Positions 35,675 through 53,111 of a stretch of DNA of 64,000 bases are shown one piece after another. Below the pieces are notes generated by a model. That model did no database searches, was not told where the DNA came from, and worked only from the letters and a program-made list of their open reading frames with translations. Each line of letters opens with the position of its first letter. The stretch's first letter is position 1. A program made the translations under genes and the position numbers. The stretch comes from an uncultured Planctomycetia bacterium (GTDB lineage Bacteria; Planctomycetota; UBA8108), in the NCBI GenBank assembly GCA_964615885.1, contig CAZTRG010000296.1, positions 10,313 to 74,312 of the forward strand. Reading direction: 5' to 3'.

Positions 35675-38600
35675 TCAGAATCCAAACGGCAGGCAACCGG
35701 CCTCGTCCAGGCGGAAAGGCAGGCTCAGGCTCTGGAGTGACTGGCTCTCACCGGTGCCGAACTTCGACTGGAAGTAGACACGGAACCGGACGAAGCGCGT
35801 ACCCTTGAGATTCCTCGGGTCACGCACCAGGCCATTCAGCTCATCAGCCTGGCCATGGACATCAAGGCTCTCGCCGGCGCTTTCCCAGACCACGACAGCC
35901 CTCGTTCCCGGAGGCTGCTGGAAGGTATTGTAAACCACCCTGGCGCCATCAAGCATGAGGCCGTGGGTGGAAGCCGAGAAGCCCGGTCCAACGCCGAGAC
36001 GATGGATTCGAGAGACAGCTACCGATTCGACGATATCCCAGAGGAAGGGGCCCGTTGTAACGCTCGGGTTGACTCCCTGGCTCCTGATTCGCGAGGTCGG
36101 GGAGAACTCGATACGGATCCGGCCATTTGCCGCACCCCCACCCAGGCCGCCAAAGGCGGTCCCGGTAAGAGCCGGCGGAGAAGCCTGGCTGGCACGAATA
36201 TTACCCTCGTAGAGACGAATACCTGAGGAGAAGAAGGGTGGCAACCTGTTGGCCTCTCCAGCGCTGACGTCAGACTGGAAGCCGTTCTCTATCGTGATCG
36301 TGTTCTTGACCTGGAGGAAGATCGTTCCACCGGCCCCGGCCCCACCATTACCGGCAAGGTCAATCGACTGGAAGGCATCACCCCCACGGGCAAGAAGCTT
36401 GGAGGTCGAACGCAGGTAGAGGTCGTTGGCAACGATATTGATAATACCGCCACCACCGCCGCCGCCCGTTCCGGGAGCGTAGAGAGCCTCACCCTTGTAG
36501 GGATAGGTTCCGGAGATACTTCCGTTCTGGTAGGTACGGCTGACATTGGCGCTCGCGCCACCACCGCCTCCACCGAGGCCGCCGACAAGCGCCAGCCCGA
36601 TAATCACGTTGTTGAGGTAGAGGCGCTGGTCCCTGAAGTTGACCAGGTCACCGCCCTGTCCCACCAGAGAATTACGCAGGCCACCACGGCCGGGCAGGAG
36701 AAGGACGTCTCCATTAGAGCCCGCCCTCAGGTTTCCACCACCGCCGCCACCGCCACCGGACTCGAAACAGTCGATTCCACAGGTACGGCCGCCGAGGCTT
36801 GAACCTCCGGTCGACCCGGTGATCGGGGGATTCTGGATTCCAAAGGTGTTGGCCGTCTCGATGATATTGGGCAGCAGCGAGTCACCCGCATCCGAGACCT
36901 GGATATTGTTGGGGTTCACATCAAAGTTCGTGACCATTCCCCCGTCGCCACCGGCGCCACCACCGGCCCCGGGAACACCGCCAAAGCCGAAGGCCGGCAG
37001 GCCGCCACCCTGGGTAAAGCGAAGTGCACCACCGTGGCCACCGGAAGCATCGATGGTCCCGGAAATTTCAGCGTAGTCCCTGACCGAGATCCGAAGAGGA
37101 TTAGGGCCGGTCGCGCGCAGGACAACGTCCTCGTCGATAATAAGCGCGGAGAGATCCATGAAGCCCGGATTGTTATCCGAAGCACGGGTTTCCTTCACGA
37201 TATTGCCGACCGGAGAGCGCAGGGTGCTGGAGGCCGTATCAAAGACCCAGACCGAAAGAGGACGACCGGTCTGCGTGTCGCTGAGCGGAGCTCCTGTATC
37301 GGGGTCGAGACTCTGGATAAAGCGCAGGTGAACCACTCCGTCCCTGCCGCGGCCGAATTCCGGCTCTTCAGGTGCCTCGATAAAGCCGCCGTTCATCAGA
37401 ACGGTCGGATCATCTGCAGGCTGGATAGTACTTGGAGAGATGAATACCGAGGTTCCGCTCGAATGAGAAACCCTGGAACCTTCGATAGCGCGAGTCAGGC
37501 CGGTGAAGGTGTTGGCGGTCTTGCCGCTGTAGGCTATGACCTCATCGTCAATCTTCACCTTACCTGCATTCGGGAATGCCTGGGTCGACTGAACCCGGAT
37601 CGTCTGGTTTCGGTTATTGGAACCGCTGAGCGTAGAGGTCAGCCTGGTAGAGGCCTGGAGGGTCATACAGAAAGGCGTTCCGCCTGTTCCGCTCTCGAGG
37701 CGAATATAACCATCACTGCCTATTCCGCGTCCACCGGTACGATTCTGGCCATTGGAGGGACCGCCGGTACCACCGGCTCCACCCCTGACCTGGAGACTGT
37801 CACAGGTGCTTACGTCAACACTTCCGGTGGCGCGCAGGTGGATAGATCCTCCACTTCCGCCGCCGCCCGCTCCACCGTTGGTCGTTCCTGCCGGGGCCTC
37901 TCCAGGAGGCACCCTTCCGGAACCGCCCCCGCCGCCATTGGCCTGGACCGAACCGATCACAACGACTCCACCGCGTGCGGTCAGCCTCAAGGCTCCACCG
38001 CCGCCGCCACCGCCACCGCCACCGGTAGCGGCAAACTCACCGCCCGTGGTGCGGGAAAGACTGGCCCCTCCACCACCTCCACCCGACCCGGTGGTCAGGG
38101 GGGTGAGCAGGGCATTTCCTCGTATCACACCGCCAGCACCCACGCGAGGTGCGGAGAAATTGGGAATGTTGGGGTTGCCGTAATTACCATCGCCACCGGC
38201 TTCCCTGTGGCCACCACCACCGCCGGGAGCACCGGCAAAGGTAGAGTTCCGGGCCTGGTCAGGATTGATAGCCGCCGGGGTCGTTCCACCAACGCCGCCT
38301 CCATTAGCTCCGGCCATGGCCGGCTCAAGAAGACGTACAGTAGCCCCTGTATTCAACTGCATAAGAGCGCCGTCACCTCCAGCGCCGCCGCCAGCGGTTC
38401 CATCTCCACCTTGTCCACCCACCAGGGAGCCATCCGCTCCATCTCCACCATTGAGATCAAGAGCTCCCATGATGGTAAACACCGGGTCTGTATCAGACGC
38501 CGCGTTTCCACCACCGGAAACCCGCATCACAAGGGGGCGGTCCCCCTGCACGAAGACAGTGGTCTGCGGTGCAATGGTGAAGGTTGCAAAATGAAATTCA

Positions 38601-40330
38601 TCGACGGCCTCACCGGGATTGATAACCCTGTTTCCATCAGGGGTCCCATCATCGGTGAGGATATAAGGTCTTGATTCTTCGGCAATAACCGCCGGCTCGC
38701 CCTCGAGGGCAACATTCCTCAGCAGCACGTGAGAAACATCTACACGGTCAGTATCGATCAGGTAGTACTGGCCGGTGATCGTATCGGGGTCGATGAAATT
38801 ATCTACTGGCTGAATCTCGAGGTAGACCTCGGCCTCACCCTGGCCGAACTGGTAGATATCATTGGTGTTCGTCTCACCCTCCAGGAGGCCGGGGTTGTAA
38901 GGAGCTCCCCAGCTGGCATCGCTCAGATTGAGATTCCGGCCGAAATCGGTATCAAAAGACTCTACGACCTCGCCGGAACGCCAGCCGACCACTTCATCTT
39001 CAGGGCGGTCCTCGACCCAGTAATAGATAAACGAGGGCGCCTCAAAAGCATGCTCACTGAATTCGCGCTCACCGGCATCAGGAATCGGCCTCACCCTGAA
39101 ATGTACCTTCCAGTACCTGGGGGGAGTGACTCCACCTTCGATGGTCTCGTTCAGTTCCCTGAAGAGCGGGTCGCACTGGGCGTCCCACACAAAGGTCCTG
39201 CGAAGCCCGCCTGAAGGAAGGAGCCTCCGGCCGGGATATTTATGCTGAATGGTTCCGCAGGTAATCTCGAATTTTCCTTCGTTATCGGGATCCTCATCGC
39301 GTGGCTTGGCCGGGTTCCATTCAAGGTCCGGCTGGCCGACATCCACGGCCCATTCAAACTCCATGGTATAGGATGCGTCGACCACCAGCTCATAGCAGGT
39401 ATAGTCAACACGTACGGGGCCGGTTGAAACACCACTGGGAACTCTCATCCCATTGACCACCGCACCGATCACCTCGATCAGGTTTTCATTGGCCACGGGA
39501 ATCTCGACCCGGTTCGAGATACCTGCAGTACTCCTGGCAACGATTCCAAGGTTCTCGCGCGGAAGCGCAAAGGGGAAGGAAACATTGTTGTTCCCATTGT
39601 TTCCATCATTGAGAACAAAAGAAAATGACTCATAGCCGGAAGGAGCCTCGCCAGGAACAAAACCTCCCGAGTTGTTGTTGATGAAGGTGCTCGAGGTCAC
39701 GCGGACACTGTTGCCGCTGCCATCATCGATATCGATATAGAGGACATCGGAGAGATTGATTCCGTAAAGGTTAACCCTGCTGTTCTCCTGGAACCGCGAG
39801 AGCAGAGGAGTGTAGACGACGTATTCCTCATCTTCATTTGCACCAAGGGTCACCGCGTAGATCGCCGGACAGGCATCGAAGCCGACAGCGCCGGCTGAAA
39901 CTCCATGGCAGAGCAGCTCGATGTTGCCGGAGGTCACACCGGTGGGAACAATGACTTCCAGGGAAGACTCAACCGTCTCACTGTCGAGATCAACCCTTCG
40001 GTTGACCACGCTCAGCGGCATTCCGAGAATCGCTCCACCGCCGGCGGAGAAGAGCACACGGTGCTCATCGATGTTGTCAGAGAAGTTGAACCCGTTGAGC
40101 TGGATAATCGTTCCAGGGCAAAGCGGATCTTCTGCACTCCCACTGCCAACTCGCTCATAATTGAGCAGGACGCATGCGGTCAGGTCTTGCGGTTGCACCG
40201 GCTCCTGGGGCCCGAAGGGATTCGTGCCACCACCGGTATTCGACTGGTCCCAGGAGAGATCACACCCTCCTACGAAAAGAGAAACCCCCAGAAGGGCCAT
40301 AATGAAGAGGCTATTCCGATTCATGGACAC
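35675..40330 (-). CDS. Giant (1551 aa) glycine-repeat lipoprotein with IPT/TIG-like modules. Possible surface adhesin or beta-helix protein.
   Basis: Lipoprotein signal (LLGVSLFVGGC). IPT-like segment (PGTIIQLNGFNFSD). Long runs of GGxGGxG / GGGGGGG repeats (e.g. GGQGGDGTAGGGAGGDG, TGGGGGGGGGGALR). The plus-strand ORFs across this gene are antisense artefacts. Confidence 0.6.
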   Translation of the reverse strand: MSMNRNSLFIMALLGVSLFVGGCDLSWDQSNTGGGTNPFGPQEPVQPQDLTACVLLNYERVGSGSAEDPLCPGTIIQLNGFNFSDNIDEHRVLFSAGGGAILGMPLSVVNRRVDLDSETVESSLEVIVPTGVTSGNIELLCHGVSAGAVGFDACPAIYAVTLGANEDEEYVVYTPLLSRFQENSRVNLYGINLSDVLYIDIDDGSGNSVRVTSSTFINNNSGGFVPGEAPSGYESFSFVLNDGNNGNNNVSFPFALPRENLGIVARSTAGISNRVEIPVANENLIEVIGAVVNGMRVPSGVSTGPVRVDYTCYELVVDASYTMEFEWAVDVGQPDLEWNPAKPRDEDPDNEGKFEITCGTIQHKYPGRRLLPSGGLRRTFVWDAQCDPLFRELNETIEGGVTPPRYWKVHFRVRPIPDAGEREFSEHAFEAPSFIYYWVEDRPEDEVVGWRSGEVVESFDTDFGRNLNLSDASWGAPYNPGLLEGETNTNDIYQFGQGEAEVYLEIQPVDNFIDPDTITGQYYLIDTDRVDVSHVLLRNVALEGEPAVIAEESRPYILTDDGTPDGNRVINPGEAVDEFHFATFTIAPQTTVFVQGDRPLVMRVSGGGNAASDTDPVFTIMGALDLNGGDGADGSLVGGQGGDGTAGGGAGGDGALMQLNTGATVRLLEPAMAGANGGGVGGTTPAAINPDQARNSTFAGAPGGGGGHREAGGDGNYGNPNIPNFSAPRVGAGGVIRGNALLTPLTTGSGGGGGGASLSRTTGGEFAATGGGGGGGGGGALRLTARGGVVVIGSVQANGGGGGSGRVPPGEAPAGTTNGGAGGGGSGGSIHLRATGSVDVSTCDSLQVRGGAGGTGGPSNGQNRTGGRGIGSDGYIRLESGTGGTPFCMTLQASTRLTSTLSGSNNRNQTIRVQSTQAFPNAGKVKIDDEVIAYSGKTANTFTGLTRAIEGSRVSHSSGTSVFISPSTIQPADDPTVLMNGGFIEAPEEPEFGRGRDGVVHLRFIQSLDPDTGAPLSDTQTGRPLSVWVFDTASSTLRSPVGNIVKETRASDNNPGFMDLSALIIDEDVVLRATGPNPLRISVRDYAEISGTIDASGGHGGALRFTQGGGLPAFGFGGVPGAGGGAGGDGGMVTNFDVNPNNIQVSDAGDSLLPNIIETANTFGIQNPPITGSTGGSSLGGRTCGIDCFESGGGGGGGGNLRAGSNGDVLLLPGRGGLRNSLVGQGGDLVNFRDQRLYLNNVIIGLALVGGLGGGGGGASANVSRTYQNGSISGTYPYKGEALYAPGTGGGGGGGIINIVANDLYLRSTSKLLARGGDAFQSIDLAGNGGAGAGGTIFLQVKNTITIENGFQSDVSAGEANRLPPFFSSGIRLYEGNIRASQASPPALTGTAFGGLGGGAANGRIRIEFSPTSRIRSQGVNPSVTTGPFLWDIVESVAVSRIHRLGVGPGFSASTHGLMLDGARVVYNTFQQPPGTRAVVVWESAGESLDVHGQADELNGLVRDPRNLKGTRFVRFRVYFQSKFGTGESQSLQSLSLPFRLDEAGCLPFGF

Positions 40331-40737
40331 CCCGACTCCTTTTCAGATACTTGCCAGCAGGCGATCTGCTTATTTCTTACGGATTGGTAAAACTTTAACC
40401 CTGTTTTCGCTTCCAGCTCTCTCAACAGTCAAACGCAGATTCCGGCAGAAAATAACCAGGAGAAGCGATTAAAACCGACCGCTCTGTCCTGTCAGCTATT
40501 CTTTGTCTACTCTGCGAATGGAACTATCAAATCCTTCCTGCAAAGAAGCCCGGTCAAAAAGGACTTGCCGGCTCAAAAAGAACCGCCAGGGCCGGGAAAC
40601 AAGCAGGGTGTCAGAGAGGAAATTTTATTCCAGGTAAACTAACCGGCACGAGCTGAAGACCCTTTACCCGAGACTGTTTTTCACAGCCCCGGGAGATCGG
40701 ATAACGTACCGAAAAGACGATGTTAACTCTCCACTGT

Positions 40738-40759
40738 GGGTTTGAAAACCCCCTTTTCC
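40738..40759 (+). terminator. Terminator-like hairpin (GGGTT-tgaa-AACCC) followed by CCTTTTCC in the 940-bp non-coding region. Possible 3' end of a plus-strand sRNA.
   Basis: Read directly from the sequence. No flanking coding gene on the plus strand would use it. Confidence 0.15.
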
Positions 40760-41269
40760 TGATAAAGAAAAGACATTAAAGACGCCTCTGCAGAATTGAA
40801 GGACTGTACTTCCAGGTTTCCGACTTCCACCTCACGGACAAACACGGCCTTAACCCTGCCCCTCTAAAACAGAAACAGGATCCAGGAACACTTCTGCAGA
40901 CAAAAAAACAAAAGGCTGAACTCCTTCAAGCTCGACTTACAAGCTGTCACAACCTTGATTAACGCAATTGTCGTTCCGCGACCTGCGTTTTCTTACTTCT
41001 TCTACTAAACAGTATAACTCAAAGAGTTTATGGGAATCTGGAACCACTTTGACAGCAGCTGAAATGCAAATATCGTCATTAAGTGTGTCCCTTTCGTCCC
41101 ACTCGTCCATAAAATGGACACCGCCTGGCTGAAAAATACGAGGCCTTCATCGATTACCTCCACCCCATATTTCAGGCAGCCGAGTAACAGATGGCTTACA
41201 ATGCAGTAGAGACTTTCCCCAACGGGGCAACCAGCATTCAGCAGCCCCAGGTATCCGGATCCATTCGCG

Positions 41270-42976
41270 ATGTTCCGCAGTTTTAAATACCTGTTCAAAC
41301 GAGAAATTGAGTTCTTCTCCCGCCTGCGCTTTTCGATGAAAAAGAGCGTTCAGCCCGGTAGAAAACCCAGCCGGTCGAAAAGGAAAAACCCTTTCCTCGT
41401 CGCCGGCCCGCCTCCCGTGCAGCGAATCACCTTCAGGAGAAGGTATCCGAGGTTAACCAGCCTGCTGGCCATTGGGATCTCGCTCGTGGTTCATATCGGG
41501 GTAGCGCTGCTGATCTACATCCAGCTCTTTGACAGGCCACCCCCCCATGAGAAAAATGAAATCACCGTCACGATACGGCTGCCCTCAAAAAAACCTCCCG
41601 GCAAGAAGCCCGAGGAGCTGAAGAAGCCCCGGCCGGAAGAGAAAAAGCCGGAGAACCCCGAACCGGTAAAGAAGGTCGTCAAAGAAGTGGTCAAGCCGAA
41701 GCCCCTTCCCCCGAAAACGACTCCACGTGAGGTCAAAAAGAAGCCGGCAGTGGTAAAGTCACCCAGCAGAAAGAAGGCTCCCAGCACCAAGAGCCTCAGG
41801 CAGATCCCGAAGGCTCCTCCCCTGGGACTGGGAGTTTCTCCCCCGGGACTCACCGCTGGAGGGTCCAAGGTCGGCGGGGGAATTCTTGGTTCGCGGGGAC
41901 GCGATGCCAAGCTGGTTGCCCTGCAGCGCTACGGCGGTAACGGACGAACGGAGAATGCTGTCGATAAAGGCCTGGCCTGGCTGGCCGCCCACCAGGATCC
42001 CGATGGTGGCTGGGATGCAAAAGATTACCAGCGCCACTGCCGCCACCATCGCCCCTGCAAAGGCCAGGGCCTGGGCGAATTCGACATGGGAGTGACGGCC
42101 CTTGCAACGCTCGCCTTCCTTGGCTCCGGGCACTCCCCCAACAAGGAGGGGCCCTACCGCCGCCATGTCACCAAGTCCCTGAAGTACATCACCGATGCCC
42201 AGAGCGGCATCGGCAGCTTTGAGCCACGCGGTGACAAGTATAACTACAATCATGCCCTGGCAACCCTGGCGCTGGCGGAAGCCTACGCTATGACCCGTGA
42301 CTCCTTCTACAAGGACAGCCTTCAGAGTGCTCTCAGGTACTCCTTCTCCTCCCAGCAGGCCGGCGGGGGCTGGGATTACAGCAGCATCAAGACCGGGCGC
42401 AACGACCTCTCCATTACCGGCTGGCAGGTCATGGGCCTGCGGGCCGCCCAGAAAGCCGGCATCCCCATACCGGCCCGGGTCCGGCAGAACCTCAGCCACT
42501 TTCTCAACCGGGCCTTCACCCCAAGCGGTTACGGGATCTACGCCAACCTCCCACCGGAGGCCGGGCGCAAGGGCGCCAACATGGTAGCCGTTGCATTGAT
42601 GACCCACCTCTACAACGGCGGACTCAGCTCGGACTCAAGGGCCCGCAGGGCTGTCAGCCGGCTTGTAAAAGACAACCCTCCTGAGGTCAAGGGAATGGCA
42701 CGCTGGGATCTCTCCTACCAGTCCTATTACTACTGGTACACCGCCACCCTGGCTCTCTTCAATGTCGGCGGTAAGACCTGGGAAGCCTGGAACACCCTCC
42801 TGCAACAGAAGGTGCTGCCGCTGCAGGACAGGGAACCCCACAGCTCCGGAAGCTGGGCGCCCGAACCCAACTGGGTGGGCCACTACGGCGGCCGCGTCTA
42901 CTCAACGGCCATCAATGTCCTGACCCTTGAGGTTTACTACCGCTACCGGCCGGTCTTTACTGTACGTAAATCATAG
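41270..42976 (+). CDS. Membrane-anchored protein: N-terminal TM, Pro/Lys-rich TonB-like linker, then a C-terminal squalene-cyclase-like repeat domain
   Basis: TM LTSLLAIGISLVVHIGVALLIYI. Linker KKPEELKKPRPEEKKPENPEPVKKVVKEVVKPKPLPPK. Repeat signatures AVDKGLAWLAAHQDPDGGWD, SQQAGGGWDY, HSSGSW. The start may be the internal Met (MKKSVQ). Confidence 0.6.
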   Translation: MFRSFKYLFKREIEFFSRLRFSMKKSVQPGRKPSRSKRKNPFLVAGPPPVQRITFRRRYPRLTSLLAIGISLVVHIGVALLIYIQLFDRPPPHEKNEITVTIRLPSKKPPGKKPEELKKPRPEEKKPENPEPVKKVVKEVVKPKPLPPKTTPREVKKKPAVVKSPSRKKAPSTKSLRQIPKAPPLGLGVSPPGLTAGGSKVGGGILGSRGRDAKLVALQRYGGNGRTENAVDKGLAWLAAHQDPDGGWDAKDYQRHCRHHRPCKGQGLGEFDMGVTALATLAFLGSGHSPNKEGPYRRHVTKSLKYITDAQSGIGSFEPRGDKYNYNHALATLALAEAYAMTRDSFYKDSLQSALRYSFSSQQAGGGWDYSSIKTGRNDLSITGWQVMGLRAAQKAGIPIPARVRQNLSHFLNRAFTPSGYGIYANLPPEAGRKGANMVAVALMTHLYNGGLSSDSRARRAVSRLVKDNPPEVKGMARWDLSYQSYYYWYTATLALFNVGGKTWEAWNTLLQQKVLPLQDREPHSSGSWAPEPNWVGHYGGRVYSTAINVLTLEVYYRYRPVFTVRKS

Positions 42977-45657: not shown

Positions 45658-47082
45658 TCAAGCCTCTATACCCAGCTTGCGAACCAGGTTGTAGAGGGTC
45701 TTGACGTTGATACCCAGCTGCCTTGCTGTCTTCGTCTTGTTGCCCCTGTTTTTAGCCAGCGCCTTTGCAATATGCGCCCGCTTCACATCCTCGAGGCTGG
45801 CAGAAGAATCAAGCTCCTCAAGAACCGGCTCGCACAGTCCCTGCTGAAGATGTTCCCTGATTTCGGCAGGACCAATAAGGGAGCTGTCAGAAAGCAGGAG
45901 CAGGCGCTCGACGAGGTTTTCCAGCTCACGCACATTACCCTCCCATTGCAGGCCGGCAAGCAGCTCAAGAGCCTGGGGGCTGAACTCGCATTCGCCAAGC
46001 CCCCTGCGACCTTCCAGGCGGGCTGAAAAATGGTCGATGAGAGCGGGAATGTCCGATGTTCTCTGGCGAAGAGGAGGAAGCTCAAGGGCTACCACGTTCA
46101 GCCTGTAGTAGAGATCCAGGCGAAACCGGCCTTCCCTGACTTCTGTCTGCAGGTCGCGGTTAGAGGCTGCAAGCAGGCGGACATCTGCCTTGAGCAGCCG
46201 CGAGCCCCCCAGCCGCCTGAACTCACCCGACTGGAGAACCCGGAGAACCTTGACCTGCATGGCCGGGGTCATCTCTCCCACCTCATCGAGAAATACAGTG
46301 CCGCCCTCTGCCATCTCAAACAGGCCCTGGCGCCGGTCGAGCGCTCCGGTAAAAGCTCCCCTCTCGTGACCGAAAAGCTCACTCTCAAGCAATGATTCCG
46401 GCAGGGCTCCACAGTTGATGGCGACGAAATTCCTGCCGGACCTGGAGCTGTACTGATGGATATGCCGGGCGAGGACCTCTTTTCCAGTGCCGCTTTCACC
46501 CTGGATCAGGACGGTTGCATCGGCGGGAGCGACCTTTTCTGCAAGCGAAACCACCTTCCGCATCTGCGGGCTGCCACAGACCATTCGCACACTCTCTTTG
46601 CGACCGGCCGAACCGGCCCCATTGGAGGAAGCAGGAGCTTCGCTGGTCTTCTGTCCTGCGCGCTGCAGATGGTTTTCGAGCTTCCGGGAGATCTCCTCCC
46701 TTGCCTCCTCTGCAAAAATAAAATCTGCTGCCCCGGCTGCCATGGTGTTGAGAACCAGCTCACGATCAGGATCAATGGCCACAGCCACCAGTGGCAGAGA
46801 CGGAGGCACATACCGGCTGAGCGTCCTGACCACCTCGACACGCTCATGGCTCTCAACGGCCACCAGGATGAGTCCCGGGAGGAAATCATCGAGATAATCG
46901 CTGAGCATTTCCCCGGTTTCGAGATATTTACGGTTGAGCCCGTCTGCAAAGAAAACCTTCTCAAGCAGGATCTTCAGCTCCGGGTTCCGGTTGATGACCA
47001 CCAGGTCATGCCCCCTTACTGCCCCGTCGCGGCTCAACAAACGGGAGTCGATTCTGTCAACACCGATGGCGGGATCAGGCAC
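45658..47082 (-). CDS. Sigma-54-dependent transcriptional activator (NtrC/FleQ-like): atypical receiver, AAA+ domain and Fis-type HTH
   Basis: [15 protein letters not shown] (Walker A). [12 protein letters not shown] (Walker B). [15 protein letters not shown] (GAFTGA). C-terminal [25 protein letters not shown]. The N-terminal receiver-like domain lacks the DD pair and the phospho-acceptor Asp. Confidence 0.85.
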
Positions 47083-47920
47083 TGGCGGTCGTCCTTTCCC
47101 TGTAGCTGGAGAGCTTGTCGAGAAACACCTTCACGATCGTTTCATCCAGCTGGCTTCCACCTGCACTCGAGAGGTTTTCACGGATCTTTGCCTCCGACAG
47201 GCTGCCCTGGTAAGGACGGCAACCGGCCATGGCATCATAGGAATCACAAACCGCTATGATCCGGGCCTCCAGCGGAATGTCGGCACCTGAGAGCCCATCC
47301 GGATAGCCTCCACCATCCACTCTTTCATGATGATGGCGAACCGCCGCGGGAGCCCAGGAGCAGCCCATCAGTGCAGCCAGCGGAGCAACCAGGGATTGTG
47401 AATGTACCGGGTGAGCCTTGATCTCTTCGTATTCCTGCGGCAGCAATCTGCCGGGCTTCCTCAGGACCTCACCAGAGACCGCCAGCTTTCCTGCATCATG
47501 GAGACTTCCCACCCACTGGATATCTTCCACCTTCCCCGGGGGAAGGCCGAGGTCTTCTGCCACCAGGGCTGCAAGAATCCCAACCCTGCGGCTATGGCCT
47601 GCAAGGTAATCGGCCTTGCGGGACAGGGCCTCCATGATATCCCTGGTCCTCTCCCTCAGAACGGCCTGCAGGGCCGTGGAGCTTGAAAAACCGGAGGTGT
47701 CTGCATTGGCAGAGAAGCTCCCTGCCACAGCCGCAGTTCCGCGCGGACTGACTGCCGGCAACAGGATATTGCCGGGAGAGGGAGGTTCACCTGCAAGGCC
47801 CGGCATCAACAAGTCCGTCAGCAGCAGGGATGTCGAGGGGCAGGCCGGAGGATTCTTTCCCACGGCTGCCTTGGCCTCGCGTTTTTCCCTTTTGCTGGCG
47901 CTTTTATTTTTTCTCATCAT
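47075..47920 (-). CDS. HD-GYP domain phosphodiesterase (putative c-di-GMP hydrolase)
   Basis: HSRRVGILAALVAEDLGL...SLHDAGKLAV...HHERVDGGGYPDGL. 8-nt overlap with the downstream EBP and 4-nt overlap with the upstream AAA+ gene. Confidence 0.8.
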   Translation of the reverse strand: MMRKNKSASKREKREAKAAVGKNPPACPSTSLLLTDLLMPGLAGEPPSPGNILLPAVSPRGTAAVAGSFSANADTSGFSSSTALQAVLRERTRDIMEALSRKADYLAGHSRRVGILAALVAEDLGLPPGKVEDIQWVGSLHDAGKLAVSGEVLRKPGRLLPQEYEEIKAHPVHSQSLVAPLAALMGCSWAPAAVRHHHERVDGGGYPDGLSGADIPLEARIIAVCDSYDAMAGCRPYQGSLSEAKIRENLSSAGGSQLDETIVKVFLDKLSSYRERTTASA

Positions 47921-48864
47921 CTCTGCCCCGCAGGGTCCACAGCTTCTGTATCTGGGTACCCACTCCCGGAAGGCTTCGCCTCCGGATCCACCGCCTCTTC
48001 TGCCGGACGGTTCTTCGTCAACAGCAGGTCTCCGAATACACCATCAAGCCTGTTGAGAACCTTGAATTCTTCCATGCATTCATCGAGCTGACGGCTGACC
48101 TTCCTCAGGGCCGGGTCCTGCCTCCCGCCAAGCCAGAAATTGGCGATTCTCGGCGAGAGGTGCTCGGCTGCTATTTCTCCGCTGACGGACCTGAGCAGCC
48201 TGCTGAGCTCGCTTGCAAGCTCAGCGTGGTTGCCGGGCCATGGATAAGAGCTGAGAGCCTCCAGGGCGTCGGGGCAGAAGACAGCCTCGGAGCCTGCAGT
48301 GAAATGGCGAACCAGGGCCCCGAGATCCTCCCTGCGCTTCCTCAGCGGGTCCAGGGCCAGCTGGGAGCCCGCGAAGGTGTCAAACAGCTTACGGTCAAAC
48401 AACCCGGCCCGCGTGAAAGAGGCGATATCTCTTGAGCTTGAAAACACCAGCCTGCTGAAGCCTCGCTCCCGGAGCTCTCCTCGACTGCAGGACTCGATAT
48501 ATTCCCGCAGGAGGGCCTGGATGGAAGGAGCCATTTCTTCGCACCTGGCGAGATAGCAGGTCCCCCCAGCGGATTCCTGGAGGATGCCCGGCTTCACGTT
48601 CTCCCCGGCCGCCGAATGGCTGCAGGCGAAGAGCTCGGCACCGAGCTCTTCGGAGAAAAACTCTGAGCAATCAACAACCTGGAAAGGATGCGCTCTTCGC
48701 AGGGAGCCACTGTGGATCAGGCGGGCGATCCGGTCCTTACCAACCCCGGGTTCTCCCGACAGGAGAACAGGCCCATCGAGGCTCGAATGAACTCGCACAA
48801 AATCACCCATCAGCCCCACTGCGGAACTTGACCCCACCATCGACCAGCAGCTTCCCGGCTTCAT
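47917..48864 (-). CDS. Degenerate sigma-54-activator-like AAA+ protein: Walker A retained, Walker B acidic residues and GAFTGA absent, no HTH
   Basis: LLSGEPGVGKDRIARLIH and ...PFQVVDCSEF resemble the EBP AAA+ core. The Walker B position reads GGTCYLARCEEM instead of GGTxFLDExGE. The GAFTGA position reads ELFACSHSAAGEN. No Fis-type HTH at the C-terminus. Confidence 0.55.
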   Translation of the reverse strand: MKPGSCWSMVGSSSAVGLMGDFVRVHSSLDGPVLLSGEPGVGKDRIARLIHSGSLRRAHPFQVVDCSEFFSEELGAELFACSHSAAGENVKPGILQESAGGTCYLARCEEMAPSIQALLREYIESCSRGELRERGFSRLVFSSSRDIASFTRAGLFDRKLFDTFAGSQLALDPLRKRREDLGALVRHFTAGSEAVFCPDALEALSSYPWPGNHAELASELSRLLRSVSGEIAAEHLSPRIANFWLGGRQDPALRKVSRQLDECMEEFKVLNRLDGVFGDLLLTKNRPAEEAVDPEAKPSGSGYPDTEAVDPAGQR

Positions 48865-49376
48865 CGATTCCTCCCCGGAGCGCTCAAGCTGTTGCTGCCT
48901 GGAAGGATCGTGCCGCTCTCAACCGCCTGGCTGGTCCCGGCACCAGCAGGACCCTGTTCCAATATGCCGAAGGAATCGGAGAGCAAGCCGGGCAGCTTGC
49001 CCACGCACCCGGCACACAAGCTCTTCCCGGTTTTTTCGCAACTGCCGGCCGCCTGCCGGCCGTCTTGTTTCAACTGCCCGTACATTGTTCAACATCCAAT
49101 GTGTTAACTGGTTTGTGGCAAATGAGGACACAACTCTGCTGCCTGCCCATGGCAGCAAGCTCATCCGCCAGGCTCCCGCGAAGCGGTTAACCGGCCCCAA
49201 AACCCGGTTCCGCAGAAGTATATGGCCTCATCCGGGGGTCGTCAAACCGATCAAATCACCGATAAGAAGAGCACTGAAGTGCCTCACAATGGCCTGAAAC
49301 AGCCTCCGGAGACCATCCGGATAACTTCTGCCGGCAGGGCTGCCGGCAGGGTACCGTTTTCGGAAGTTCAGCCACC

Positions 49377-52300
49377 TCAGGCTGAACTGCTGGCTGCCAT
49401 CTCTTCCATCTTTTCAGGGTCGTAGGACTCCAGCGAAACGGCCACTCGCTTAGAGACGCCCCGCTCCTGCATGGTGATGCCATAGAGTGTGTCGGCCTCG
49501 CCCATGGTGACCTTGTTATGGGTAATAATGATGAACTGGGTGTTGGCGAGGAAATCATCCAGGAGGACGGTAAATCGCCTGACATTCGCATCATCAAGAG
49601 GGGCATCGACCTCGTCCAGGATACAGAAAGGACTGGCCTTCGATTTGAAGATCGCCAGGAGCAAGGCGATTGTCGTCATCGTCTTCTCGCCACCGGACAT
49701 CTGCATCAGGGTTCGGAGCTTCTTGCCGGGAGGCCGGGCGACGATGTCGATTCCTGCCTCCAGGATATCGACCCCCTCCTCCAGGACCAGCTCTGCACGG
49801 CCCCCTCCGAAACACTTCCTGAAGAGATCCTTGAAGTTGGTCTGAACCGAGTCGAAGGTGTCCTGGAAGAGCTGCCTGCACTTGGCGTTGAGCTCGGCAA
49901 TGATGGCCTGGAATTCCTTCTCTGAATTTTCCAGGTCCGTCTTCTGGTCCATCTGAAACTTGTAGCGCTCCTCGAGCTCATCGAGTTCATCCAGCGCCTC
50001 CAGGTTGACGTTCCCCAGCTTGCGCATCTTCTCTCGCAGCTCTCCGAGCTCATCCTGTGCCTCCACAGGATTCCAGTCAGGCAGGGGTCGAAGGTAGCGC
50101 TCCTCATCGCTGAGTTCCGGTTCCGGCTCCGGTTCCTGCTGCTCCTGCTCAGAGCCAGGAGCAGCTTCTGTTCCTGCCTCGCCTTCCGCCTCTTCCTGGT
50201 CCTCCGGGGACTCGGGAAGCGGCGGCGGCCCTGCCTCCCGCCAGTGGCGCGCCTTCTCCAGGAGGGATTTGAGATCGATCCCATATTCCTCCTCGATCCG
50301 GTCGAGGGCTGTTTCCCGGCGGTGGCGTTCCTCCTGGTCTTTCAGCTGAAGGGCCTCCTTCCGGTCGGAATACTCCTTGATGACAGCCCGCACACTCTCA
50401 CACTGCCTATGGAGGCCATCCTCTTCCCGGGAGAGAAGCTGCTCCCGCTTCTCCTTGCTCTCGAGTTCCCCGACAAGCTCGACCTCCCGGTCACCCAGCT
50501 CCATAAGACGGCACCTGGCATCGACCTGGTCCTTGCGGGTCTCGAGAATCTTATCCTTCGTCAGGCTGATGGTTCTTCCAAGGTCTTCACAGCGGGCTTT
50601 CTGATCTTCGTAGTTCCTCTCCTGGCGCTGGAGAAACTCGTCAATGTTCTCCTCCTCATGCTCCACCTTACCCAGTGCCAGCTTAGCCTCAGAAACCCCG
50701 TCTTTGGCCGATTCCGCCTCCTGCCTCAACGATTCGAGGTCCTTTTCGAGCTGTTCGATGGAGGTTTCTGCCTCTGAACACTCCGAATCAAGCCTCGCAA
50801 TCTCGCTGGAATGATCTGACTCAACCCGGCTTTTGCGCGCAATATCCCTGAGCACCTCATCTCTCTCCTGGATATTCACTTTGATTTCCCGCTCCAGCTT
50901 CTCAACCTCCCTGGCCGCCTGCTCGATCTCTCCCTCGCAAACCATAGCCAGGCGCCGGGCATCATCTGCTGAGCGCCCCTTGTTTCCCCGGGCAAGACGG
51001 AGCTTACCAAGCTTCGCCCTCAGACCCTCAATCTCCCCCTCCAGGAGGGTACACTCCCGGTCACGGACCTGGATGGACTCACTGAGCCTGTCCAGCTCAA
51101 CCCCTTCGGCAAACCCGCCCTTTCCGCTTGCCGGCGCCGAGAGCCCGCCCCAGGGTTCGAGCAATTCCCCAGCAGGAGTGACAATCCTGCAGCTACCTGC
51201 TCCGTTGCGAGAGAGGGAGAAGGCCAGGGCTACATCCTCCACCAGCAGAACATCTGCAAGCAGCTGGTCGGCGACGGATTCAAAACCCGGCTCCACCTCA
51301 ACAAAATCCCGCAGGGGGCCAAGCACCCCATCTGCCTGGGAGAACGAAACGGCTGTAGCCGGAGCAGCCGGGGCAATACGGTCCAGCGATATAATTCCCG
51401 CGCCCTCGCCATCCTCACGCCTGACACAGCTCAGCAGTTCAAACACACCCTCCTGGCCTTCGACAATCACGGCATGGTTCATCTCACCAAGGGCCACCTC
51501 CAGTGCGGGTGCATACTCATCCGGAACCCGGAAAATCGACTGGACCCTGCCATTTACCTGCGCGGCTCCGTCGAGCTCGCCGGAACGCCTGGAAAACACA
51601 GCGGAGCTGTCCTGCAGAGAATTGAGGGCCTCGAAGCGCGAGGTGTCACGGTTGAGCTCCTTCCGCATCCCCCGCAGCTTCTCCTCCATCTCCTCTATGC
51701 GAGCCTCGAAGGTTTCCATCGCCTGTGAAATTTTTTCCCGCTCACGCTCCACCTCTCCGAGAGCTCCCCGGCTTTTCTCGGTCTTCTTCTCAAGGTTCTC
51801 GGCCCCGTCCATACAACGTCGCAGGGCCTCCTCCTGCCGGCTGATGGTTCCATCGTAATGAACCTCTCTCTCCCGGAGGCTCTTGAGGCTGGCCGTGGTT
51901 TCTACCAGGAGGTTATAGGTGGCCGCGCGTTCCTGCAGCCCTTCAACCAGGCCCTCCTTGCGGGACTCAAGCAGGCGCCGCAGGTCCGCCACCTGCCCCC
52001 GGCGCAGCCGCAGCTCTTCCTTTGCGTCCGCGAGCACTGTGCGGCAGGCTTCGAGGTTTGACTGGAGGCCACCGGACTTGCTCCGCTCCTGGTGGACCTG
52101 CAGCCGTGTTCTCTCCAGGCTGGCTGCAGCCTGGTGCAGCTCCTCTTTCCGGGCTGATTCTTCCTCGATCAGCTCCACGTACCTCTTGTCGGCATGGTTG
52201 ATCTCTCCCTTGGTGCGCTCCCTGGCCAGGCGCTCCTCTTCCACCCTGTCGCGGGATTGCTGAAGGTCGCTTCGCAGCTGCTCCCGCTCACCCCGCCTGG

Positions 52301-53111
52301 ATTCGATCTGTTCGCCAAGGCGGCGCAGCTCACCCTCCTGGACCGTGATCTTCTCCAGGACATCATCAAGCCCGGTGGAAAGCTTTGAGCCCTCCACCAC
52401 AGATCCCTGGTAAGCATCCAGGGCAATACGAACCCTGAGATCCCTGATGCGGTCAGAGTAGGCCTGGTAGCGCCTTGCCTTGCTCGCCTGGGCCTTGACG
52501 CGCCGGACCCTCTTGCCCACTTCATCAATAAGATCCTGCAGCCTGCTGAGGTTGTCCTCCACCCGCAGCAAGGCCCTCAGGCTCTCCGCCTTGCGGACCC
52601 TGTACTTGGAGATCCCGGCGGCCTCTTCGAAAACCACCCGGCGGTCGGAATTGCTGGCCTGCAGAAGAACATCGATCTTGCCCTGCTCCAGGATGGAATA
52701 GGAGGTTGCCCCGAAACCTGTATCCAGGAAGAGGGTCTTGATGTCCTTGAGGCGGCAGGGCTGCTTGTTGATGAGATATTCACTCTCGCCGCTTCTGAAC
52801 AGGCGCCTGGTGACCGCCACCTCTGAGAAGTCGATATCGAAATACCTGTCGGCATTGTCAAACACGACCGTGACCTCAGCATAGCCAAGCGGTTTGCGGT
52901 TCTGGGTACCGCCGAAGATAACATCCTGCATCTCCGTACCCCGGAGTCCCTTGGGGGACTGGCTTCCAAGGATCCACTTGAAGGCATCGACTACGTTTGA
53001 CTTCCCGCAACCGTTCGGCCCGACGATCCCTGTAACGCCCGGTTTGAAATCCAGGCTCGTACGGTCCGCGAACGACTTAAAACCTACCAGCTCAAGCTTC
53101 TTCAGATGCAC
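49377..53111 (-). CDS. smc: Chromosome segregation protein SMC
   Basis: N-terminal Walker A MHLKKLELVGFKSFADRTSLDFKPGVTGIVGPNGCGKSNVVDAF. Long coiled coils and hinge. C-terminal signature/Walker B (LSGGEKTMTTIALLLAIF...FCILDEVDAPLD). Confidence 0.9.
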   Translation of the reverse strand: MHLKKLELVGFKSFADRTSLDFKPGVTGIVGPNGCGKSNVVDAFKWILGSQSPKGLRGTEMQDVIFGGTQNRKPLGYAEVTVVFDNADRYFDIDFSEVAVTRRLFRSGESEYLINKQPCRLKDIKTLFLDTGFGATSYSILEQGKIDVLLQASNSDRRVVFEEAAGISKYRVRKAESLRALLRVEDNLSRLQDLIDEVGKRVRRVKAQASKARRYQAYSDRIRDLRVRIALDAYQGSVVEGSKLSTGLDDVLEKITVQEGELRRLGEQIESRRGEREQLRSDLQQSRDRVEEERLARERTKGEINHADKRYVELIEEESARKEELHQAAASLERTRLQVHQERSKSGGLQSNLEACRTVLADAKEELRLRRGQVADLRRLLESRKEGLVEGLQERAATYNLLVETTASLKSLREREVHYDGTISRQEEALRRCMDGAENLEKKTEKSRGALGEVEREREKISQAMETFEARIEEMEEKLRGMRKELNRDTSRFEALNSLQDSSAVFSRRSGELDGAAQVNGRVQSIFRVPDEYAPALEVALGEMNHAVIVEGQEGVFELLSCVRREDGEGAGIISLDRIAPAAPATAVSFSQADGVLGPLRDFVEVEPGFESVADQLLADVLLVEDVALAFSLSRNGAGSCRIVTPAGELLEPWGGLSAPASGKGGFAEGVELDRLSESIQVRDRECTLLEGEIEGLRAKLGKLRLARGNKGRSADDARRLAMVCEGEIEQAAREVEKLEREIKVNIQERDEVLRDIARKSRVESDHSSEIARLDSECSEAETSIEQLEKDLESLRQEAESAKDGVSEAKLALGKVEHEEENIDEFLQRQERNYEDQKARCEDLGRTISLTKDKILETRKDQVDARCRLMELGDREVELVGELESKEKREQLLSREEDGLHRQCESVRAVIKEYSDRKEALQLKDQEERHRRETALDRIEEEYGIDLKSLLEKARHWREAGPPPLPESPEDQEEAEGEAGTEAAPGSEQEQQEPEPEPELSDEERYLRPLPDWNPVEAQDELGELREKMRKLGNVNLEALDELDELEERYKFQMDQKTDLENSEKEFQAIIAELNAKCRQLFQDTFDSVQTNFKDLFRKCFGGGRAELVLEEGVDILEAGIDIVARPPGKKLRTLMQMSGGEKTMTTIALLLAIFKSKASPFCILDEVDAPLDDANVRRFTVLLDDFLANTQFIIITHNKVTMGEADTLYGITMQERGVSKRVAVSLESYDPEKMEEMAASSSA

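Follow-up and report, generated by a model that had tools for sequence, protein, structure and literature searches.

The window analysed here, a stretch of 64,000 nucleotides from contig CAZTRG010000296.1 of an uncultured Planctomycetia bacterium, contains three genes that follow each other head to tail on the minus strand. In order they encode a degenerate relative of the bacterial enhancer-binding proteins (EBPs) that activate sigma-54 promoters, an HD-GYP protein and a complete EBP. The degenerate protein, called pEBP (pseudo-EBP) in this report, has lost the motifs by which an EBP hydrolyses ATP, touches sigma-54 and binds DNA, and it is nevertheless maintained beside an intact activator in all of the lineages compared below. 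The coordinates of these genes and of the other features of the region are collected in Table 1.

The stop codon of pEBP and the start codon of HD-GYP share 4 nt (ATGA, which reads ...CAG AGA TGA over ATG ATG AGA), and the stop codon of HD-GYP and the start codon of the EBP share 8 nt (GTGCCTGA, which reads GTG CCT GA). Both overlaps had been given in the original prediction, which took them as a sign that the three genes are almost certainly co-translated. The junction sequences contain them as described and the HD-GYP/EBP overlap is conserved, but the 4-nt overlap of pEBP and HD-GYP is not, the orthologous genes being separated by 12-51 nt. From this arrangement co-translation of the operon genes may be supposed. 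Upstream of the operon lies the SMC gene (49377-53111, minus) with a gap of 512 bp to pEBP, and at its downstream end there is a convergent M20-peptidase gene, so that the operon can be considered a bounded unit. The GC content is about 0.59 and even over the region. An anti-phage defence context was considered and discarded, as PADLOC gave merely generic RtcR-like AAA+ matches.

The degenerate activator and its two neighbours

In Pfam the pEBP protein matches Sigma54_activat (PF00158, E 2.5e-17) and AAA_lid_14 (PF25601, E 1.5e-8). Its sequence begins precisely at the start of the AAA+ domain, with no N-terminal domain found by Pfam, and many of the NCBIfam EBP models match its central part only. 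The state of its motifs was read from HMMER alignments to ZraR and NtrC1, from a BLASTP alignment to the neighbouring EBP (33% identity) and from MAFFT, all of which were concordant. Walker A is kept, with GEPGVGKD opposite GESGTGKE and the P-loop Lys present. The GAFTGA motif of the L1 loop is lost, the corresponding stretch being ELFACSHSA--AGE with a deletion of two residues, the DE of Walker B has become AR (GGTCYLARCEE) and the sensor II Arg has become Ala (WPGNHAEL opposite W.GNVREL). Neither of the two PspF-type Arg-finger positions (equivalents of R162 and R168) is kept, the sequence there being GLFDRKLFDTF, and the L2 insertion is shortened. A helix-turn-helix (HTH) was looked for in residues 237-315, where neither HTH_8 nor any other Pfam model matched even at E<=10.

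An AlphaFold2 (AF2) model of pEBP built with 12 family sequences (predicted local distance difference test, pLDDT, 78.8) presents a well-defined AAA+ core and lid with the EBP fold; the two helices that come after them at the C-terminus (238-284) are modelled less confidently. When this model was submitted to Foldseek the best matches were the AAA+ domains of FleQ, NtrC1, ZraR and DmpR (E ~1e-17), FleQ being marginally the top one. The C-terminal helices have no detectable relative in Pfam or by hhalign to the linker and HTH of the EBP; the latter comparison gave a probability of 0.2%, and together with the empty Pfam search it led us to reject a remnant of the Fis-type HTH at this end of the protein. 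Because the independent alignments agree with each other and AF2 and Foldseek recover the EBP fold, the losses cannot be ascribed to a manual mis-alignment that displaced an intact Walker B and GAFTGA, an error against which the original prediction had itself warned. Its description of a protein that keeps Walker A and lacks Walker B, GAFTGA and a DNA-binding domain is borne out by HMMER, BLASTP, MAFFT and Pfam.

Binding of nucleotide by pEBP is plausible, since the AAA+ fold, the P-loop Lys and the lid are all kept. Hydrolysis is not expected, given the loss of the Walker B acids, of the sensor II Arg and of a fixed Arg finger, and judged by its sequence the protein is incapable of canonical ATP hydrolysis. 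For the same kind of reason it should be unable to engage sigma-54 through L1, having lost the GAFTGA loop (and part of L2 in the window's clade), and unable to bind DNA, having lost the HTH.

The third gene encodes an EBP in which nothing essential is missing. Pfam finds Sigma54_activat (PF00158, E 3.8e-70), the lid and HTH_8 (E 5.7e-10), and Walker A and B, GAFTGA, the Arg fingers, sensor II and the Fis-type HTH are all present, with FRxDLYYR, GNVREL and further core motifs invariant over 21 orthologues and relatives. Residues 27-146 fold in AF2 as a (beta-alpha)5 receiver with a pLDDT of 80-90 (elements E27-30, H34-47, E51-54, H58-66, E71-75, H79-91, E98-102, H107-115, E120-123 and H128-146). 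In this domain N31/R32, A75-V76, A102 and A124 stand in place of the Asp pair, the phospho-acceptor Asp, the Thr and the Lys; all five residues of the phosphorylation chemistry are absent and the replacements are common to the whole EBP orthogroup. The Pfam model Response_reg (PF00072) reaches only E 0.22 on this N-terminus and gives a faint match in some of the orthologues. Since the fold of a receiver is present but its Asp, Thr and Lys are replaced, the domain is non-phosphorylatable, and Pfam, the motif alignment and AF2 agree with the earlier view of a complete EBP with an Asp-less receiver. The name "FleQ-like" that had been given to it is an analogy only, because the FleQ domain (PF06490) had no Pfam match on the N-terminus even at E<=10 and the best NCBIfam models are NifA, PrdR, FlbD and AtoC. 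Nor does the cluster contain a MinD/FleN-like gene. In the loci of clade B (L004, L007, L009 and L011; proteins P0142-P0148) the EBP has 339 aa and consists of AAA+ and HTH, the pseudo-receiver being gone.

The HD-GYP protein matches HD_5 (PF13487, E 7e-27) and HD in Pfam and has the motifs HDAGK and HHHERVDGGGYP. Every metal ligand is kept in comparison with PmGH (4mcw), with GHSRRV, LHDAGK, AHP, HHHERVDGGGYP and CDSYDA opposite H189, H221/D222, H250, H276/H277 and D305. Its best solved relative is V-cGAP3 (5z7c), a phosphodiesterase specific for 3'3'-cGAMP (cyclic GMP-AMP), and the HD-GYP proteins acting on cyclic di-GMP (c-di-GMP) rank behind it, for which reason the substrate should not be assumed to be c-di-GMP. 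The c-di-GMP phosphodiesterase of the original prediction is therefore retained as an HD-GYP protein with all of its ligands and not in its specificity. No domain matched the N-terminal 95 residues. Within them STSLLLTDLLMPGLAGE aligns with strand beta-3, the phospho-acceptor Asp and the MPG loop of the receiver in locus L006, a distant genome in which the orthologue has a full receiver domain; the orthologue in the P0147 locus has Response_reg and HD_5. As this stretch aligns with the complete receivers of the orthologues, the HD-GYP protein of the window is, on the evidence of the alignment, a response regulator of the RpfG type in which a vestige of about 17 residues is all that is left of a decayed receiver.

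Conservation of the pair and of the pEBP family

In each of the 13 distinct loci whose sequence continues beyond pEBP, and also in the duplicate L003 (the loci covered are the window, L002-L005, L006, L007, L009, L011, L001, L083, L084, L085 and the P0147 locus), the gene encoding pEBP lies directly upstream of the orthologous EBP gene, so that the pair proposed from a single stretch of DNA does exist in other genomes. A search started independently from the EBP gave four orthologues of 44-47% identity, each with a Sigma54_activat gene of 304-317 aa and without HTH immediately upstream. The window's clade and clade B have HD-GYP, as do L006 and the P0147 locus; in L001 (a contig of 9.18 Mb), L083, L084 and L085 it is absent from the cluster. 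The neighbours of pEBP are indeed variable between loci and can be HD-GYP, an M20 peptidase or a pentapeptide-repeat gene. With pEBP and EBP always adjacent and HD-GYP variable, the conserved partnership is that of pEBP with the EBP. The suggestion that HD-GYP sets the local signal level may hold in some lineages, but it cannot describe the core of the system, as the gene is missing from the four clusters just named.

All of the related loci share a recurrent block, NrdR-NrdD-SMC-[pEBP-(HD-GYP)-EBP]-...-YjeF_N-SQHop-like-giant gene. Outside the window's clade and clade B, five lineages carry a gene for a pentapeptide-repeat protein (about 760-826 aa) in the interval from SMC to pEBP (see Table 1 for the coordinates in four loci). 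This gene does not exist in the window, where a conserved leader holds the position.

A search of 5.8 billion proteins found 13 pEBP clusters of 253-373 aa and one fragment of 196 aa, all without HTH, and the members whose source is named are all Planctomycetota. The scores fall from 136 to 106 bits between this family and the ordinary EBPs. When 1.84 billion representatives were searched with a profile, the pEBP signature turned up in about 15 clusters (50% identity). The members have about 300 aa, and three more of them, which were reached via the loci of partner EBPs, are 35-39% identical to the window protein and have identical lesions. Throughout the family GTCYL[AS][RHN].EE is found in the place of Walker B, GAFTGA and the sensor II Arg are lacking and GExGxGK is retained; in the relatives SR, SH or AN takes the place of the Walker B DE, and His, Leu, Asp or Glu that of the sensor II Arg. 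The positions equivalent to R162 and R168 are variable or lost. In the pEBPs of clade B the L1 loop is wholly deleted, whereas the basal members retain L1 and L2 at full length and sometimes one Arg finger, and the window's clade and clade B have in general deleted more. These fuller basal members indicate that the decay of the loops was progressive, and from the distribution of the lesions the losses of Walker B and sensor II are ancestral in the family. The C-terminal helices contain the motif IANFWLGGRxDPxVRKV...EFKVLxRLDxxFGxLL, which becomes IAxFWLGxRxDPxVxKV...EFxVLSRLDxEFGDxL when the distant members (35-39% identity) are included and is family-specific.

The ratio of non-synonymous to synonymous substitution rates (dN/dS) of pEBP against two orthologues is 0.34 and 0.24, compared with 0.13 and 0.12 for the EBP and about 0.1 for SMC. 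It is also the fastest-evolving gene of the block, with 72% identity in L005, where its neighbours have 85-92%. By its dN/dS the selection on pEBP is relaxed yet clearly purifying. The possibility that pEBP is a recent tandem duplicate of its partner was rejected because the EBP orthogroup never came near the top in blastp, an argument that is weak since the database was biased to pEBP-like matches.

Expression of the operon and a candidate target

Upstream of the operon there is a sigma-70-like promoter of which both hexamers and the spacing are invariant in nine loci of two clades, although the pEBPs of these clades are only about 40% identical. It is followed by a conserved leader with a mean column identity of 86% over 136 columns, which is far beyond the level to be expected from the flanking proteins. 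In the RNAalifold prediction the leader forms a long hairpin whose base is formed by the invariant GTCAATCGCT paired with the bases just 5' of the first ATG, and the predicted hairpin occludes the region immediately before this codon. Paired cells make up 92.6% of this structure against 35-44% in slid controls, and five pairs vary on both sides among the nine sequences of the two clades, which is modest evidence. The leader is confined to these two related clades. It could not be assigned to a known RNA family, since a window-wide Rfam search gave no match at the gathering threshold and only chance-level ones at E<=5; one metagenome scan for further lineages to be used for covariation returned lineages already in the set and chance matches.

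Between the leader and pEBP there is an upstream open reading frame (ORF) that is likewise open in L005 and L002, where it also ends on the pEBP start, while in clade B and in P0006 its ATG is fused in frame with pEBP. The peptide is not conserved (dN/dS 0.85) but the frame and the coupling are, and this ORF looks like a translated spacer that would bring ribosomes to pEBP and not like a conserved peptide. The operon would have a sigma-70-type promoter of its own, and its expression would pass through the conserved, structured leader and the upstream ORF coupled to pEBP. Autoregulation by sigma-54 was rejected, as no credible -24/-12 element exists upstream of pEBP and the conserved promoter is sigma-70-like. 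Over the whole window TGGCAC-N5-TTGCW matched 31 times with 29.5 expected, which is chance level.

A possible target of the EBP is found upstream of the giant lipoprotein gene, which most of the related loci likewise have at the end of the syntenic block. Here the window, L002, L094 and L090 (clades A and B) share YGGAAC-N5-TTGCR at the aligned position, with immediate flanks that diverge. The element fits the -24 GG and -12 TTGC of a sigma-54 promoter and is put forward as a tentative candidate; the intergenic region in which it lies (40331-41270) is crowded with other strongly conserved non-coding blocks. The pattern GGGTTTT-N(5-30)-GTYAAY has only two sites in the 64 kb, at 40722-40751 within one of these blocks and at 49186-49205 within the leader of the operon (both minus), where 0.08 would be expected for this pattern, which was defined post hoc; the two sites may belong to a shared regulator. 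The true start of the giant gene is probably an ATG placed 6 nt inside the listed GTG ORF and 12 nt after AAGGAG. In the same intergenic region a 24-nt block, CTACTGCATTGTAAGCCATCTGTT, at 41185-41209 is identical in both clades and has a plus-strand TACAAT about 65 nt upstream of the start of the SQHop-like gene; this block probably serves the divergent plus-strand operon as its promoter.

Table 1. Position of the genes and non-coding features of the locus, with the pentapeptide-repeat genes of related loci numbered in their own sequences
Feature	Position	Strand	Description
pEBP gene	47917-48864	minus	315 aa; ORF and Pfam
HD-GYP gene	47075-47920	minus	281 aa; ORF and Pfam
EBP gene	45658-47082	minus	474 aa; GTG start; ORF and Pfam
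Upstream ORF	48861-49085	minus	74 codons; conserved ATG at 49085; ends ATGA on the pEBP start codon
Conserved 5' leader, probably structured	49086-49210	minus	about 125 nt; contains invariant GGGTTTTGGGG...GTYAAYCGCT
Sigma-70-like promoter	49217-49245	minus	TTGACG, 17-nt spacer, TATACT; consensus scan, 10/12 matches
Giant lipoprotein gene	35675-40330	minus	1551 aa; Gly-rich; lipoprotein-type signal (…LFVGGC); no obvious domains
Tentative sigma-54 -24/-12 element	40963-40978	minus	CGGAACGACAATTGCG; about 640 nt upstream of the giant lipoprotein gene
Hairpin-like conserved block	40722-40765		GGGGGTTTTCAAACCC; within intergenic 40331-41270
Conserved block with AAGGAG	within intergenic 40331-41270		90 nt; just 5' of the start codon of the giant gene
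Pentapeptide-repeat gene, L001	5415-7895		
Pentapeptide-repeat gene, L083	3640-5913		
Pentapeptide-repeat gene, L084	3630-5990		
Pentapeptide-repeat gene, L085	3600-5891		

Possible function and comparison with known systems

EBPs that have no cis-regulatory domains, like PspF, are controlled in trans via their AAA+ domain, as in the pairs PspA-PspF, HrpV-HrpS and FleN-FleQ. Our preferred reading, to which we give a probability of roughly 0.45, is that pEBP is a non-catalytic paralogue of the EBPs that acts as a dedicated trans-acting regulatory subunit of the adjacent sigma-54 activator. It would contact the AAA+ domain of this EBP, either as a dead protomer inserted in the EBP ring or capping it, or as an anti-activator that binds through the new C-terminal helices, and it would thereby set the amount of active hexamer, probably in a nucleotide-dependent manner. 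Inhibition is more likely than assistance, because the EBP has no usable phosphorylation input, its receiver being degenerate and in one clade deleted; we hold this direction less firmly than the regulatory role itself. Where present, HD-GYP would be an accessory input linking the module to the cyclic-dinucleotide pool, and ancestrally a phosphorylatable RpfG-like response regulator. Mixed rings of EBP paralogues have been described for HrpR/HrpS, FleQ/FleT, VnfA1/VnfA3 and RedR1/RedR2 (PMC9542535). Moreover, the c-di-GMP enzyme RpfR physically sequesters the EBP BerB (PMC9684580), which offers one route by which an HD-GYP-like enzyme could act on an EBP.

The idea that the truncated protein modulates the true EBP was already contained in the original prediction, and the comparative genomics, with the pair in 13 of 13 distinct loci, favours it. 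Nevertheless several points weigh against this reading. The physical contact of the two proteins, the direction of the effect and the binding of nucleotide by pEBP, the last from the P-loop alone, are things that we infer. The adjacency of the genes may partly reflect vertical inheritance, as the whole block from SMC to YjeF_N is syntenic. In addition its own partner does not stand out as the sequence closest to pEBP, which is thus no recent duplicate for which co-assembly would be a trivial outcome, and the loss of the Arg fingers and the truncation of L2 might weaken the contacts within a ring.

A more far-reaching version can be formulated, in which pEBP would be the first case of a pseudo-ATPase that occurs naturally as a subunit of a sigma-54 activator ring. 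As a protomer that binds ATP without hydrolysing it and is blind to sigma-54, it would co-assemble with the EBP and gate or tune open-complex formation as a dominant-negative or timer, it would be made under a novel leader RNA, and the output would be the sigma-54 promoter of the giant surface lipoprotein. Taken with all of these parts we consider this version rather doubtful.

In the unrelated proteins P0241, P0242 and P0249-P0263, which have 500-1030 aa, two or three Sigma54_activat AAA+ domains stand in tandem. A motif search by regular expression found that in P0253, P0255, P0257 and P0258, for example, one AAA+ domain is without GAFTGA and Walker B and the other is canonical. Such proteins would be a possible covalent version of the pairing of an active and a dead EBP, as a conceptual parallel only. 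They were rejected as fusions of pEBP and EBP because they are unrelated and their profile scores were merely summed over the domains.

As the HD-GYP gene separates pEBP from the EBP in the window and several other lineages, pEBP could also be a stand-alone receptor for c-di-GMP or another cyclic dinucleotide, which would be bound in the crippled AAA+ pocket while HD-GYP sets the level of the ligand. The AAA+ domains of FleQ, VpsR and BerB bind c-di-GMP, that of FleQ is the marginally best structural match of pEBP, and a P-loop kept without catalysis would suit a receptor. FleQ binds c-di-GMP by R144 (the R-switch), R185 and E330/R334 (PMC10723142), but in pEBP the equivalents of R144, R185, E330 and R334 are W7, R48, H187 and G191. 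The positions of W7, H187 and G191 are nowhere conserved as Arg or Glu in the pEBP family, and R48 is the Arg after Walker A that is generic to EBPs. The sensor with FleQ-like motifs that had been proposed at the outset fails in this alignment, in which the R-switch and ExxxR are absent and with them the FleQ-type site of pEBP, though c-di-GMP might be bound in another mode. The EBP keeps the equivalents of R185 and R334, which are generic residues of the ATP site, and has an Arg at the R144 position in the window that is not conserved in its orthogroup. As moreover four lineages hold pEBP and EBP without HD-GYP in the cluster, and the best solved relative of HD-GYP is a cGAMP phosphodiesterase, we regard such a receptor as unlikely. 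Another partner for pEBP could be HD-GYP itself, with pEBP acting in trans, as a regulator or as a scaffold, in the role of the receiver that this enzyme has lost, and the EBP merely co-expressed. The receiver of the window's HD-GYP has indeed been lost down to a vestige, and the two genes would be translationally coupled by ATGA; this partnership is nonetheless improbable, because pEBP is older than the loss, co-occurring with a full REC-HD-GYP (REC, receiver) in L006 and the P0147 locus, because it persists without HD-GYP in L001, L083, L084 and L085, and because L002, L004 and L005 do not share the coupling by ATGA.

We also see little probability that pEBP works independently of the adjacent EBP, for instance by titrating another AAA+ protein or by binding sigma-54 or RNA polymerase non-productively. 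Its C-terminal helices without detectable relatives, and a partner that is not the closest EBP in sequence, would be compatible with this, but the strict adjacency to the EBP over all of the lineages examined speaks against it, and the known contacts with sigma-54 have gone with the loss of L1 and L2. Finally, the fast evolution of pEBP relative to its block and the progressive deletion of its loops might be taken as signs of a functionless relic in decay. This explanation is effectively refuted by a dN/dS of 0.24-0.34, by an intact frame and by invariant residues and a new C-terminal motif that are kept down to 35% identity. A frameshifted remnant of a full-length protein had been named as a possibility when the locus was first described; the closest relatives are however all HTH-less proteins of about 300 aa under purifying selection, and no close full-length homologue bearing an HTH was found among the 5.8 billion proteins. 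Since these relatives are intact and have the same lesions, pEBP is not a pseudogene.

The regulatory subunit that we prefer would have some general meaning. Sigma-54 activators are textbook AAA+ rings that work mechanically on RNA polymerase, and to our knowledge they are regulated either through sensory domains in cis or through anti-activators that are unrelated to them, for instance PspA, FleN, NifL and HrpV. If our reading is true, a dead EBP paralogue paired with a sensor-less EBP would be a third mode of regulation, by a pseudo-enzyme subunit. It would at the same time be a natural experiment on the number of active protomers needed per ring of a bacterial EBP (bEBP), a number that as far as we know has been addressed only by engineered mixed rings. 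The locus would also record how a signalling module (REC-HD-GYP, REC-EBP and pEBP) loses its phosphorylation chemistry stepwise in one bacterial lineage. The family is small, belongs to one lineage and is known from uncultured organisms, and whatever is said here beyond its sequence features is our interpretation of them. A description of a catalytically dead EBP AAA+ protein without HTH like pEBP was not found by full-text literature searches, some of which were directed at proteins of this kind.

Compared with FleQ of Pseudomonas aeruginosa, the EBP of the window has the same order of a receiver-like N-terminus without phospho-acceptor, an AAA+ domain and an HTH. It differs in having no Pfam FleQ domain and no FleN nearby, and the residues for c-di-GMP are absent in pEBP and partial in the EBP. 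RpfG-type REC-HD-GYP proteins are matched in architecture by the orthologues of L006 and the P0147 locus, whereas the receiver in the window is only the vestige of about 17 residues. VpsR, TyrR, Caulobacter NtrC and Rhodobacter NtrC resemble pEBP in that they have an EBP-type AAA+ domain without the residues for sigma-54 contact, for hydrolysis or for both, and VpsR binds c-di-GMP (PMC6158489, PMC12421884). These proteins, however, keep the HTH as DNA-binding sigma-70 regulators, while pEBP has neither a DNA-binding nor an N-terminal domain, and NtrX contrasts with it likewise.

In PspA-PspF, HrpV-HrpS, FleN-FleQ and NifL-NifA an EBP without a usable cis input is bound at its AAA+ domain by a separate protein, which controls the ATPase or the assembly of the EBP, as is proposed here for pEBP; the anti-activator FleN is itself nucleotide-binding (PMC10723142). 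PspA, HrpV, FleN and NifL have folds unrelated to the EBPs, whereas pEBP is itself a degenerate copy of the EBP AAA+ domain.

In pairs of the HrpR/HrpS and FleQ/FleT type both partners are sigma-54 activators with GAFTGA and the ATPase motifs. HrpR/HrpS of Pseudomonas syringae and FleQ/FleT of Cereibacter sphaeroides are similar to the pair described here in having two AAA+ genes of the EBP family together, which in our case are adjacent or overlapping in every lineage. The partners in HrpR/HrpS and FleQ/FleT act on each other via their AAA+ domains and have no working N-terminal sensors, so that control is by assembly (PMC9542535, PMC7277832). Unlike HrpR or FleT, pEBP is without GAFTGA, Walker B, sensor II and a DNA-binding domain, and its pairing is known from the genes alone. 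As pEBP is by its sequence no active activator, the pair would be at best a variant of the hetero-oligomeric bEBP type.

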